Source of the DNA: Escherichia coli
GTDB lineage: Bacteria; Pseudomonadota; Gammaproteobacteria; Enterobacterales; Enterobacteriaceae
Assembly (NCBI RefSeq): GCF_050920415.1
Contig: NZ_CP169309.1
Reading direction: 5' to 3' (one strand)
Length of the DNA: 64,000 nucleotides
Shown: in pieces, positions 3,853-40,637 of the stretch
Numbering within the stretch: position 1 is the stretch's first letter
Layout of the letters: every line of letters starts with the position of its first letter
Made by a program: the position numbers and the translations under genes
Notes under the pieces: generated by a model
Told to the model about the DNA's origin: nothing
Database searches by the model: none
Seen by the model: the letters and a program-made list of their open reading frames with translations, nothing else

Positions 3853-5145
3853 ATGGAACCACATATGGCTGAGGAAAAACAGCAATCCCGCCAGGCCTCA
3901 CTGACTTTACAGGTGATGAATGGCAACGAACTGGAAAGCGGACGTGCCGCAAAATGCCTGTTCAGCGAAAACGGCGGTGATATTGGCCATACGCCGGAAT
4001 GTCACTGGCAGGTACAGGACCGGGCGGGAAGCATTGCTGCGCGTGCCTGTACCGTTATCCGGCACGACGGAGCCTATTGCCTGCGGTGCCTGACGCCGGG
4101 ACTGATGATTAATCTGGCCCCGGTCTCTTCCGATGCGCTCATCCGCCTGCGCCAGGGGGATGAGATCCAGCTCGGCGCACTGGCGCTGAAAGTGTTTCTG
4201 CATGACGGTGCAGCTGTTACTTATGACGAGCGGATGGCGACCCCGGAAACGATTGTAATGAACCGCGACAGTCTGGCGGACACCCTGTTGACCACCGAGG
4301 GACAACCGGCGTATCCGGGAATGCCGTTCCAGCATCAGCTTGCCCCCACGGTGGCGCACGGTTTTTCCAGCGATCCGCTCCAGGCACTCCAGACGGAAAG
4401 CCTGATGGTGGCAGATGATCCGATCGCCCCACGCGTTTCCCGGCCCGTTGCCCCCGCCTCCGATCTGACAGGTGCAAACGGGATCAACACGCCGTTTATG
4501 GATCTGCCGCCCGGCAATGCCCGTCATGAGGACGGCGATGAATTTTCTGCCATGGCGCAGTACCACCTGGCCGTAACCCCGCTGCTGCGCGGTATGGAGT
4601 GTCCGCTGACGCTGCACAATTCTCAGGATGCGGATGAGTTTCTCGAAGAGGCCGGACGGGCGTTGCAGGCCGCCATTAAGGGATTGCTGAGTCTGCAACA
4701 ACAACAGAACAGCCTGTCGGATAAACACCTGCGTCCACTGGAAGACAACCCGTTGCGCCTTGATATGGACTATGCCACCGCGCTGAACGTCATGTTCGCC
4801 GAGGGTAAAAGCCCGGTACATCTCGCCGCACCTGCGGCCATCGCCGAAAGCCTGCGCAACATCCGGCATCATGAAGAGGCCAACCGGGCGGCGATTGTGG
4901 AAGCGTTGCGTGTCATGCTGGACGCCTTCTCGCCGGGCAACCTGATGCGCCGCTTTGCGCAATACCGCCGCAGCCATGAGCTGCGCCAGAAAATGGACAA
5001 CGCCTGGGCATGGCAGATGTACAGCAACTATTACGATGAACTGGCCTCCAGCCGACAGCAGGGATTTGAAATGCTGTTCAATGAAGTTTATGCCCAGGTC
5101 TATGACCGGGTGCTGCGCGAAAAACAGCGGGAGCCGGAAGCATGA
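3853..5145 (+). CDS. tagH: T6SS FHA-domain protein TagH/Fha
   Basis: The listed ORF (3703) starts inside tssG; the in-frame ATG at 3853 with upstream AGGGA gives 430 aa. N-terminal region (GRAAKCLF...HWQVQDRAGS...LRCLTPGLMINLAP...GDEIQLG) looks like an FHA domain, followed by a Pro/Ala-rich linker and a C-terminal TagH-type domain. Confidence 0.82.
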   Translation: MEPHMAEEKQQSRQASLTLQVMNGNELESGRAAKCLFSENGGDIGHTPECHWQVQDRAGSIAARACTVIRHDGAYCLRCLTPGLMINLAPVSSDALIRLRQGDEIQLGALALKVFLHDGAAVTYDERMATPETIVMNRDSLADTLLTTEGQPAYPGMPFQHQLAPTVAHGFSSDPLQALQTESLMVADDPIAPRVSRPVAPASDLTGANGINTPFMDLPPGNARHEDGDEFSAMAQYHLAVTPLLRGMECPLTLHNSQDADEFLEEAGRALQAAIKGLLSLQQQQNSLSDKHLRPLEDNPLRLDMDYATALNVMFAEGKSPVHLAAPAAIAESLRNIRHHEEANRAAIVEALRVMLDAFSPGNLMRRFAQYRRSHELRQKMDNAWAWQMYSNYYDELASSRQQGFEMLFNEVYAQVYDRVLREKQREPEA

Positions 5146-5666
5146 ACGGCAAAGCGTTTCTGGCCTGCGTTCTGATGAGCGTTGTGTTAACTGGCTGTGA
5201 AACAGCGAAAAAAATCAGCCAGGTGATCCGCAATCCGGATATTCAGGTCGGAAAGCTGATGGATCAGTCAACCGAGCTGACCGTCACGCTGCTGACCGAG
5301 CCGGACAGCAACCTGACGGCAGACGGTGAAGCCGCGCCGGTGGATGTGCAACTGGTTTATCTGAGTGATGACTCTAAATTCCAGGCCGCCGACTACGACC
5401 AGGTTGCCACCACCGCACTGCCCGACGTGCTGGGAAAAAACTATATCGATCATCAGGACTTCAACCTGTTGCCGGACACCGTAAAAACACTGCCGCCGAT
5501 CAAGCTGGATGAGAAAACCGGTTATATCGGTGTCATTGCCTATTTTTCAGACGACCAGGCCACAGAATGGAAACAAATTGAGCCGGTAGAAAGTATCGGC
5601 CACCACTATCGCCTGCTCGTGCATATCCGCGCCAGTGCGATTGAGATGAAAAAAGAGGAAAACTGA
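5142..5666 (+). CDS. tssJ: T6SS outer-membrane lipoprotein TssJ
   Basis: 174 aa; signal peptide with lipobox VLTGC; 4-nt ATGA overlap with tagH stop; position between fha and tssK. Confidence 0.88.
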   Translation: MNGKAFLACVLMSVVLTGCETAKKISQVIRNPDIQVGKLMDQSTELTVTLLTEPDSNLTADGEAAPVDVQLVYLSDDSKFQAADYDQVATTALPDVLGKNYIDHQDFNLLPDTVKTLPPIKLDEKTGYIGVIAYFSDDQATEWKQIEPVESIGHHYRLLVHIRASAIEMKKEEN

Positions 5667-5668
5667 CG

Positions 5669-7015
5669 ATGGCAACAATGAAAAACAAGGTGATCTGGCA
5701 GGAAGGGCTGTTTGCCCTGCCGCAGCATTTTCAGCAACAGCAGCGTCACTGCGAGTACCTGCTGACCCGTCGTCTGGATGCTCAGGGTGATTTTTTCTGG
5801 GGCTTTACGGAACTCTCCATCAATACCGAACTGCTTGCCCAGGGCAAAATCATGATTGACCGTGCGGCGGGCTGTATGCCTGACGGCACCGTATTCAGCA
5901 TTCCCGACCAGGATCTGCTGCCGGAACCTTTCCAGCCGGGAACCCTTTCATCGAAAGAGAGCCACAATATTTATCTGGCGCTGCCTGTAATCAGCGACGT
6001 GATCAATGAAATCCAGGGGTTGCACAGCGCCGGTCAGGGTACGGAGCGTTACCGCCTCACCCATACCCGCGTCCGTGATTTTCACACTGACGAAGGCGAC
6101 GAACAGCCGGTCGGTCTGGGGCAGTTGATCCCCAGGATAGTCAGCGGCGCAGATGATCTCAGCGCGATGGTGACCCTCCCCCTGTGCCGTATCCTCAATA
6201 AAAATGCTACCGGCGCACTGGTGCTGGACAACACCTTTATTCCCACCATTCAGGCCGTCCGTGTCAGCGGGTTGCTCGGGGCATTCTCCGGCGAGGTGCA
6301 GGGGCTACTTGCCACCCGCGCCGCCGACCTGGCCGGGCGCATCGGTTCGCCTGAACAGAGCGGGATCGCCGATGTGGCCGAATTTATGATGTTGCAGATG
6401 CTTAACCGCCATCAAATGCAGTTCACGCATCGTTCCCAACTGCACACGCTGCATCCGGAAGCCTTCTACCGGGATCTGGTGGGGCTGCTGGGAGAACTGA
6501 TGACCTTCACCGAAGGTAATCGCCTGCCCTGCACCGTGGAGCCGTATAATCACCGGGATCTTACCGCGACCTTCACCAGAACAGTAATTCCGGAACTGCG
6601 GCGCGCACTCAATACCGTGCTGGTACCGCGTGCGCAGAATCTGCCGCTGTTCTTTTCAGAGGGGACCTGGATCGCCACCATCAGCGATCCCACACTGTTG
6701 CAGTCCTGCAAGCTGGTACTGGCAGTGCGCGCCAGGATGCCCTACGACCAGGTGCAGCGCCAGTTCATCCAGCAGTCGAAAGTGGCCGCTACCGACAAAA
6801 TCCGCAGCGTGGTCAGCGTGCAGGTGCCGGGTATTCCGCTGCACACGCTTACCGCTGCGCCGCGTCAGTTGCCCTGGCATGAAGGTTATGTTTACTTCGA
6901 ACTGGAAAAAGGCACCCCAGCCTGGCAGGACGTGATAAAAGCGGGCGCGCTGGCGCTGCATATCTCCGGCACCTTCCCCGATCTGAACCTTCAGCTCTGG
7001 GCGATAAGGGGATAA
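5669..7015 (+). CDS. tssK: T6SS baseplate protein TssK (ImpJ/VasE family)
   Basis: 448 aa; N-terminal VIWQEGLFALPQHFQQQQRHCEYLL is the hallmark TssK motif. Confidence 0.92.
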   Translation: MATMKNKVIWQEGLFALPQHFQQQQRHCEYLLTRRLDAQGDFFWGFTELSINTELLAQGKIMIDRAAGCMPDGTVFSIPDQDLLPEPFQPGTLSSKESHNIYLALPVISDVINEIQGLHSAGQGTERYRLTHTRVRDFHTDEGDEQPVGLGQLIPRIVSGADDLSAMVTLPLCRILNKNATGALVLDNTFIPTIQAVRVSGLLGAFSGEVQGLLATRAADLAGRIGSPEQSGIADVAEFMMLQMLNRHQMQFTHRSQLHTLHPEAFYRDLVGLLGELMTFTEGNRLPCTVEPYNHRDLTATFTRTVIPELRRALNTVLVPRAQNLPLFFSEGTWIATISDPTLLQSCKLVLAVRARMPYDQVQRQFIQQSKVAATDKIRSVVSVQVPGIPLHTLTAAPRQLPWHEGYVYFELEKGTPAWQDVIKAGALALHISGTFPDLNLQLWAIRG

Positions 7016-7019
7016 GTGA

Positions 7020-7793
7020 ATGAGCGATATCAGCGATATGGGTGAACCGTCGGTTTTTCCCATGGAGCCGGAGAGCGGAACATCAGGACGTCAGTACCGT
7101 CTCGCCCTTCGCGGCAACAGCCTGAACCCAATGATTGACGCCGCCACGCCGTTGCTCGGCATGGTGATGCGTCTGTCCACCATGAACAGCCAGGCCATGC
7201 CGGAACACCTGTTTGCCCAGGTGGTAACCGATGTCCAGGCTGTGGAGCAACTACTCCAGGAGCAGGGTTACGAGCCGGGCGTCATTGTTTCGTTCCGCTA
7301 CATTCTCTGCACATTTATAGACGAAGCGGCGCTAGGCAACGGCTGGTCCAACAAAAACGAATGGATTAAACAGTCACTGCTGGTTCATTTCCATAACGAA
7401 GCCTGGGGCGGTGAGAAAGTGTTTATCCTGCTCGAACGCCTGATCCGCGAGCCGGTACGTTACCAGGATCTGCTGGAGTTTTTATACATCTGTTTTTCGC
7501 TCGGCTTTCGCGGGCGCTACAAGGTTGCCATTCAGCAACAGGATGAATTTGAGCGGATCTACCAGCGCCTGCACCATGCCCTGCACAAACTGCGCGGTGA
7601 CGCGCCATTTTCGCTGCTTCACCAGAAGAACAACATACAGGGCGGGCGTTATCAGTTAATCCGGCGGCTGACCATCAGGCATGTAATGTGCGGCGGTCTT
7701 GTTGTGCTGGCCGTATTTTATCTGTTTTATCTGCTGCGTCTGGACAGCCAGACACAGGATATTCTGCATCAGCTCAATAAATTACTCCGATAA
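7020..7793 (+). CDS. tssL: T6SS membrane complex protein TssL (DotU/IcmH-like), no peptidoglycan-binding extension
   Basis: 257 aa; DotU-like core (YICFSLGFRGRY) and one C-terminal transmembrane segment (VMCGGLVVLAVFYLFYLL); no OmpA-like tail. Confidence 0.88.
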   Translation: MSDISDMGEPSVFPMEPESGTSGRQYRLALRGNSLNPMIDAATPLLGMVMRLSTMNSQAMPEHLFAQVVTDVQAVEQLLQEQGYEPGVIVSFRYILCTFIDEAALGNGWSNKNEWIKQSLLVHFHNEAWGGEKVFILLERLIREPVRYQDLLEFLYICFSLGFRGRYKVAIQQQDEFERIYQRLHHALHKLRGDAPFSLLHQKNNIQGGRYQLIRRLTIRHVMCGGLVVLAVFYLFYLLRLDSQTQDILHQLNKLLR

Positions 7794-7802
7794 GGACATC
7801 TT

Positions 7803-39797: not shown

Positions 39798-39812
39798 CAT
39801 GGATTGTATAAA

Positions 39813-40637
39813 ATGGATAAACCAAAGGCGCACTGGTGCCTGCTTCTCCCCTGCTTTCTTTCACTTTCGGCCTGTACCGTTGACATCAGCCAGCCAGACT
39901 CATCAGCCACAGCGGTAGATGCCGCGGCAAAAACATGGGCAGTCAAATTCCAGCATCAAAGCTCTTTCACCGAACAATCAATAAAAGAAATAACAGAACC
40001 TGATCTCAAACCCGGCGATTTACTGTTCTCCTCAAGCCTTGGGGTAACCTCATTTGGTATCCGCGTCTTCAGCACTTCCTCTGTGAGCCACGTTGCAATC
40101 TTTTTGGGAGATAATAACGTTGCAGAAGCGACAGGAGATGGCGTCCAGATTGTTTCCCTTAAAAAAGCGATGAAGCATAGTGATAAGCTTTTCGTCTTAC
40201 GAGTTCCGGATCTTACCCCGCAACAAGCCACAGAAATTACCGCGTTTGCCAATAAAATCAAAGATAGCGGTTATAACTATCGCGGCATTGTCGAATTTAT
40301 TCCATTTATGGTGACTCGCCAGATGTGCTCACTGAATCCGTTCTCCGAGGATTTTCGCCAACAGTGCGTCAGCGGCCTGGCGAAAGCGCAGTTAAGCAGT
40401 GTGAGCGAAGGAGACAAAAAGTCGTGGTTTTGTTCGGAATTTGTCACTGATGCATTTGCCAAAGCCGGACATCCGCTTACGCTGGCACAGTCTGGCTGGA
40501 TTAGCCCTGCCGATCTGATGCATATGCGTACTGGCGATGTCTCTGCGTTTAAGCCAGAAACGCAGTTAGAGTATGTCGGGCACTTGAAGCCAGGGATTTA
40601 TATTAAAGCGAGTCGCTTTGTTGGTCTGACTCGGTGA
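39813..40637 (+). CDS. yaeF: Lipoprotein YaeF (YaeF/YiiX-family permuted papain-like fold)
   Basis: 274 aa from the ATG at 39813; lipobox LSLSAC; synteny between proS and nlpE. Confidence 0.88.
   Translation: MDKPKAHWCLLLPCFLSLSACTVDISQPDSSATAVDAAAKTWAVKFQHQSSFTEQSIKEITEPDLKPGDLLFSSSLGVTSFGIRVFSTSSVSHVAIFLGDNNVAEATGDGVQIVSLKKAMKHSDKLFVLRVPDLTPQQATEITAFANKIKDSGYNYRGIVEFIPFMVTRQMCSLNPFSEDFRQQCVSGLAKAQLSSVSEGDKKSWFCSEFVTDAFAKAGHPLTLAQSGWISPADLMHMRTGDVSAFKPETQLEYVGHLKPGIYIKASRFVGLTR

Follow-up and report, generated by a model that had tools for sequence, protein, structure and literature searches.

TssL of an Escherichia coli T6SS-2 island is a VasF-type protein in a cluster without its own peptidoglycan-binding domain

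The first part of a 64,000-nucleotide stretch of Escherichia coli DNA (the window) carries a type VI secretion system (T6SS) cluster whose tssL gene encodes a protein of 257 amino acids (aa). This TssL is a standard VasF-type protein of the Vibrio cholerae-like subtype, termed T6SS-2 in E. coli, and the cluster has no wall-binding domain of its own. Judged by the homologues and related clusters compared here, the lack of a peptidoglycan-binding domain is shown to be fixed throughout the V. cholerae-type subtype; it is neither something lost at this locus nor peculiar to it. An initial annotation of the window had noticed that TssL ends shortly after its transmembrane (TM) helix and that no OmpA/MotB-like domain is seen in TssL or any other gene. 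Both observations are borne out below. It had further concluded that the cluster must use a different solution to anchor its membrane complex to the wall or pass through it, and this part of the argument requires revision.

TssL architecture and its relatives

DotU (PF09850) is the sole Pfam family recognized in TssL, at residues 37-237 (E 4.1e-58; 196.8 bits with a cut-off of 27). The NCBIfam DotU/TssL model TIGR03349 agrees with 215 bits (cut-off 90), and the OmpA domain PF00691 gives no match to TssL at E<=0.1. Hydropathy predicts a C-tail anchor topology, with one helix near the C-terminus that is followed by 17 residues. Domains of the OmpA_C-like type comprise roughly 100-120 aa. There is therefore no room for one in TssL, and since the clpV start lies 10 nucleotides (nt) past the tssL stop, no lost domain is to be found downstream.

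The start codon used here is the ATG at 7020, which is preceded by a Shine-Dalgarno-like AAGGGG with a 6-nt spacer. In an identical genome, the NCBI Prokaryotic Genome Annotation Pipeline (PGAP) places the start at ATG 7038, giving a product of 251 aa. The start at 7020 has the better ribosome-binding site of the two and yields the length of V. cholerae VasF.

VasF (VCA0115, the V. cholerae TssL; PDB 4v3i) is the closest solved structure. It has 257 aa like the E. coli protein, and its residues 24-257 align with residues 23-256 of E. coli TssL (E 5e-57). The two proteins have in common the DotU domain, the single C-terminal TM helix and a short conserved tail that ends in ...QLNxxL. The cluster order tagH-tssJ-tssK-tssL-clpV-...-vasI-tssA-tssM-tagA is also alike in the two species. 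The sequences have diverged, however: in a tblastn search, the E. coli query shares 32% identity with the related TssL of Vibrio maritimus.

The periplasmic tail is better conserved than the helix that precedes it. In an alignment of 33 non-redundant homologues that includes V. cholerae, conservation is 0.69-0.75 in the tail versus 0.57-0.60 in the TM helix, and the tail motif Q[TS]QD[IV]LxQLNxLL is kept from E. coli to Vibrio. This pattern suggests that the tail makes a specific contact in the periplasm or at the membrane surface.

Among 5426 complete E. coli genomes, 2922 contain a match to a 7-kb stretch of the cluster that includes tssL (positions 5000-12000), and in 2619 of these the match spans at least 80% of the stretch. 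The 120 best TssL homologues are 58-97% identical to the query, are mostly about 245-275 aa long and come from Escherichia, Enterobacter, Citrobacter, Salmonella, Hafnia, Yersinia, Photorhabdus, Xenorhabdus and Serratia. PF00691 is found in none of these 120 proteins, and the few whose length deviates prove to be gene fragments or chimeric calls. More distant clusters were read around five VasI homologues (27-43% identical; up to 10 kb on each side). All five have the gene order seen here, and the available sequence around them holds no OmpA-domain gene. Their TssL is a DotU-only protein of 256-262 aa in four cases and is split by frameshifts across about 790 nt in the fifth.

Other TssL lineages are built differently. 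Most of those met in a tblastn search against plasmids match in the cytoplasmic domain only, and many are annotated as 'TssL, long form'. Long-form TssL proteins, such as those of the Salmonella T6SS and TssL1 of the Pseudomonas aeruginosa H1 system, combine DotU with an OmpA_C-like domain (PMC10433429). Their DotU domain and TM helix are homologous to those of the E. coli T6SS-2 protein, which matches positions 34-266 of the 438-position long-form profile NF005444 (E 4e-53). The periplasmic wall-binding extension of the long form is absent from the T6SS-2 protein, which stops 17 residues past the helix.

The TssL of the enteroaggregative E. coli (EAEC) Sci-1 system (T6SS-1) is also short and C-tail-anchored (PMC3426401), but it is distant from the query (3u66; E 0.0025). 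The NCBIfam model NF038239 (T6SS_TssL_short) gives the query 67 bits, below its cut-off of 180. By these profile comparisons, the T6SS-2 TssL is short in architecture and belongs to a lineage other than the EAEC type. The two systems differ as well in that EAEC T6SS-1 has TagL, an essential polytopic inner-membrane protein that binds TssL and carries an OmpA-like wall-binding domain (PMC8253398). A gene of this kind occurs neither in the cluster nor anywhere else in the window or the rest of the island.

PGAP names the tssL product 'type IVB secretion system protein IcmH/DotU', because it passes the cut-off of NF038228 (121 bits; cut-off 50). This label is a naming artefact. The genes tssJ, tssK, tssL, clpV, vasI, tssA and tssM are contiguous on the plus strand, which places TssL within a T6SS cluster and not in a Dot/Icm system.

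Peptidoglycan-binding domains in the window and the island

Pfam scans of the about 53 real genes of the window find no PF00691 domain in any of them. Domain annotation of TssL and TssM, which the initial annotation had proposed as a check, returns DotU alone for the former and IcmF-family domains alone for the latter, with no peptidoglycan-binding domain in TssM. Other T6SSs deal with the same general problem of their own wall through TagX (an Acinetobacter L,D-endopeptidase), TagV (a Serratia SH3b lipoprotein), TagP/TagN/TagW or, in EAEC, the housekeeping enzyme MltE (PMC5061870, PMC7614798, PMC10433429). Profile scans found domains of these types in none of the cluster proteins.

A search of the flanking DNA for OmpA, LysM or transglycosylase genes, also proposed initially, gives a mixed outcome. 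No OmpA gene is present in the island. The window does encode the lytic transglycosylase MltD, which had been overlooked and which combines an SLT domain with two LysM domains, the latter being peptidoglycan-binding. A literal statement that no protein encoded in the window has a peptidoglycan-binding domain fails on these LysM domains. The point about the cluster is unchanged, because mltD is a core-genome housekeeping gene that lies outside the T6SS island, 3 kb past its tRNA-Asp edge. Its position reflects ancestral synteny and is no evidence of a link to the T6SS. MltD is also a lytic transglycosylase other than the MltE used in EAEC. YaeF (39804-40637; C92/NlpC_P60) is the second housekeeping wall enzyme of the window and is likewise outside the island.

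The window start cuts tssC, and part of the cluster and island lies beyond it. Positions 5000-12000 of the window are 100% identical to the E. coli chromosome NZ_CP169399.1, in which about 46 kb upstream of the window was read to the far edge of the island, using the annotation and Pfam scans of unnamed genes. This sequence contains tssB, hcp, several vgrG and PAAR genes, effector and immunity genes, Tae4, Tle1, insertion sequence (IS) elements and a group II intron. No OmpA-family domain was found in these ~46 kb. Upstream of the island are the core genes yafV, ivy, fadE and others.

The sole peptidoglycan-binding domain in the upstream part of the island is a PG_binding_1 domain on an M23 peptidase encoded beside a PAAR gene. 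This protein (PG_binding_1 + Peptidase_M23; L001 1228-1989, minus strand, in NZ_CP169399.1) has no signal peptide, and its gene is about 13-14 kb upstream of the window start. It is followed by a gene for a small protein that does have a signal peptide (L001 744-1208, minus strand). The two are likely a wall-degrading T6SS effector-immunity pair and not a structural anchor. Near this pair are a Tae4 amidase pair and a Tle1 lipase with DUF3304 genes. The Tae4 amidase, the Tle1 lipase and the M23 effector are toxins, and none of them is taken as a structural part of the machine.

The membrane complex and the cell wall

That this subtype has no peptidoglycan-binding domain, and the question of how such systems function, are already known from published work. 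V. cholerae has been called a "notable exception" in this respect, with E. tarda also named (PMC8253398). Nguyen et al. (2021) asked how these exceptions work and speculated that OmpA- or Pal-like proteins from outside the cluster might be involved (PMC8253398). The initial interpretation is thus not specific to the window but applies to the whole V. cholerae-type subtype. It also merges two separate problems, which are wall anchoring by peptidoglycan-binding domains and wall passage by lytic enzymes. Whatever the type of T6SS, its gene cluster seldom includes lytic enzymes for wall passage (PMC10433429). A 2023 review describes lytic transglycosylases as 'an exception in T6SS clusters' and recounts how the housekeeping enzyme MltE is domesticated by TssM in EAEC (PMC10433429).

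The absence of a peptidoglycan-binding domain from the cluster stands, but the need for a substitute was overstated. Vettiger et al. (2017) found that ampicillin spheroplasts of V. cholerae lose peptidoglycan staining, yet their sheaths continue to cycle, Hcp is secreted, VgrG2 is delivered and E. coli cells are killed (PMC5511345). The result also suggests that systems of this subtype can do without strong wall anchoring. The companion idea, that housekeeping factors stand in, corresponds to the field's own published speculation and has MltE as a precedent, but the sequence points to no particular substitute.

On balance, the subtype probably needs no dedicated wall anchor, with TssJ-TssM-TssL holding the machine and a housekeeping hydrolase opening the wall. 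TssJ, as an outer-membrane lipoprotein, TssM, with its inner-membrane segments and large periplasmic domain, and TssL would together hold the machine firmly enough via both membranes. During assembly, the wall would be opened locally by a housekeeping wall-cutting enzyme, as in most T6SS clusters. We infer this anchor-free mode from the V. cholerae experiments and from the use of MltE by EAEC T6SS-1, a precedent described in reviewed form (PMC10433429; PMC9251886). Some considerations weigh against it. The wall-binding motif of TagL is essential in EAEC T6SS-1 (PMC8253398), and wall anchoring can therefore matter in the same species. The literature searched gave no wall-contact experiment for E. 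coli T6SS-2. In addition, periplasmic contacts of some kind exist, as the exported VasI and the conserved tail of TssL show.

A rival explanation is that a housekeeping wall-binding protein encoded elsewhere, such as OmpA, Pal, YiaD, YfiB or similar, is recruited to TssJLM and anchors it in trans. The speculation of Nguyen et al. concerns exactly such clusters, and the TssL tail, being conserved, is a possible place for such a protein to dock. OmpA influences the frequency and positioning of T6SS assembly in Acinetobacter (PMC9251886), but the same study left the role of wall binding by OmpA itself unclear. No gene of the window links such a protein to the cluster, and the spheroplast data speak against the need for an intact wall. 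We consider anchoring in trans unlikely; its support comes from analogy and from the OmpA effect in Acinetobacter.

Alternatively, a periplasmic part encoded by the cluster itself might brace the machine against the envelope without a recognizable wall-binding domain. VasI/TagO, the VasL domain of TagA and the TssL tail are the candidates. The N-terminus of VasI is typical of Sec signal peptides, and in all contexts examined its gene is inherited along with that of the short TssL. Its function has been termed unknown (PMC6653060). Deletion of vasI in V. cholerae leaves secretion of Hcp and VgrG intact, but abolishes or reduces killing (PMC3166118). The fold of VasI resembles IalB and, more weakly, chain 8z5n_A, which belongs to the LPHT ring of the Vibrio flagellum and, judged by its name and 270-aa length, is probably MotY. 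This second match is presumably to the N-terminal docking domain of MotY and not to its OmpA-like domain, because no other OmpA-like structure scored. The fold search found no known wall-binding fold for VasI. For TagA, a model of residues 230-453 (TM segment and VasL domain) predicted from a 20-sequence alignment is unusable, with a pLDDT of 45.7. The conservation of the TssL tail is in keeping with a brace of this kind, which we nevertheless regard as quite improbable.

One particular form of this idea is that VasI/TagO, perhaps docking on the 17-residue TssL tail, replaces the wall anchor as a non-canonical periplasmic brace in the V. cholerae-type subtype. Such a brace would link the membrane complex with either the wall or the outer membrane, and would explain why V. 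cholerae vasI mutants secrete Hcp/VgrG and have lost killing. We give this proposal little credence.

A TagL-like or other wall-binding gene might also sit beyond the window, either elsewhere in the island or in a possible second T6SS cluster of the genome. The cut inside tssC means that the window leaves part of the island unseen. However, the ~46 kb to the island edge has no OmpA-family gene, its sole PG_binding_1 protein belongs to a likely effector-immunity pair, and the distant relatives of the cluster also have no such gene. An outside gene is thus very unlikely overall and is rejected for the island, which is what the search covered.

Finally, the possibility that the short TssL is an artefact, namely a truncated or frameshifted gene that once had a wall-binding extension, might be raised because OmpA-domain long forms are common in other lineages and their profile aligns in part with the query, but this reading of tssL as a pseudogene is practically untenable and is refuted by a length and C-terminal sequence that match homologues from E. 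coli to Vibrio to the last residues, by the proximity of clpV, and by the requirement for V. cholerae VasF, of the same architecture, in Hcp secretion and killing (PMC3166118).

This check is of use as a negative, practical result. The locus is an ordinary T6SS-2 island and should not be flagged as anomalous.

Gene order and surroundings of the island

The window is a piece of E. coli chromosome in which a T6SS-2 cluster is inserted at a tRNA-Asp gene (aspV). All of the cluster genes are on the plus strand in the order tssC, tssE, tssF, tssG, tagH (FHA), tssJ, tssK, tssL, clpV, vasI, tssA, tssM, tagA (ImpA_N + VasL) and hcp. E. coli clusters of this organization, including the FHA gene, are termed T6SS-2 (PMC10711316; PMC7216683). 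The Vas-like order with tagH, vasI/tagO and a tagA with a VasL domain is the same as in the distant clusters that have VasI, and the locus is an ordinary Vibrio-like T6SS-2 island at aspV. The TagA class includes V. cholerae VCA0121 (PMC6745524). Coordinates of the main features are collected in Table 1.

Table 1. Features of the T6SS-2 cluster and its surroundings, in window positions
Feature	Position	Strand	Basis
tagH, FHA-domain accessory protein	3865..5145	+	PF00498 + PF20232; TIGR03354 E 8e-127
tssJ, outer-membrane lipoprotein of the membrane complex	5142..5666	+	PF12790; TIGR03352; lipobox LTGC
tssK, baseplate subunit	5669..7015	+	PF05936 E 2e-134
tssL, short, predicted C-tail anchor of the V. 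cholerae VasF type, 257 aa	7020..7793	+	Open reading frame; DotU; TIGR03349; match to 4v3i; Shine-Dalgarno
DotU profile match (cytoplasmic domain, running into the TM helix)	7128..7730	+	aa 37-237 against profile positions 1-202 of 205
Predicted single TM helix of TssL, about aa 221-240	7680..7739	+	Kyte-Doolittle scan, peak 2.16 at 221-239
Predicted 17-residue periplasmic tail of TssL, LDSQTQDILHQLNKLLR, with motif Q[TS]QD[IV]LxQLNxLL	7740..7790	+	Alignment of 33 non-redundant homologues
tssH/clpV	7803..10535	+	AAA_2, AAA_lid_9, ClpB_D2-small
vasI/tagO, exported accessory protein, IalB-like beta domain	10532..11275	+	
tssM, three TM-like segments, large periplasmic domain	12742..16269 (PGAP start 12832)	+	IcmF-related_N, IcmF-related, IcmF_helical, IcmF_C; TM scan
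tagA (ImpA_N + TM + VasL domain)	16278..17639	+	PF06812 + PF12486; TM-like segment 236-254
tRNA-Asp (aspV), insertion site and edge of the T6SS island	19593..19669	-	ARAGORN; annotation of identical genome
mltD, housekeeping lytic transglycosylase	22645..24003	+	SLT PF01464 E 2e-32; LysM PF01476 x2 E 2.5e-32; annotated mltD

One difference from the relatives of the cluster concerns vasH, which encodes a sigma-54 activator. Four of the five distant clusters with VasI (L004-L007) have vasH between clpV and vasI, and the fifth (L003) is without it. Here, the end of clpV at 10535 and the start of vasI at 10532 overlap by 4 nt with no vasH gene between them. The E. coli cluster must therefore be regulated differently from those relatives; the vasH difference is regulatory and not structural.

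Between hcp and the tRNA-Asp gene there is a patch of 39% GC with a gene for a 261-aa lipoprotein (18478-19263, minus strand; lipobox LLAGC), which we take to be K-12 yafT. No Pfam family matches its product, which could be an orphan immunity protein or unrelated cargo. Past the tRNA-Asp gene are the core genes dnaQ, rnhA, yafS, gloB, mltD and others, an rRNA operon and the metNIQ-to-frr region.

The upstream vgrG/effector part of the island also carries mobile elements (L001 6904-8132; L002 17111-20934 and 27172-29136). They comprise IS2, remnants of ISAs1, an element of the IS21 family whose istA is frameshifted, and a reverse transcriptase of a group II intron. A truncated vgrG-like gene also lies in the upstream part of the island. 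Farther away, about 50-60 kb upstream of the window (L002 1-8834), there is a lateral-flagellar (Flag-2-like) gene set that includes fliF, fliE, fliP/Q/R, flhB, flhA and a gene for a sigma-54 interaction protein.
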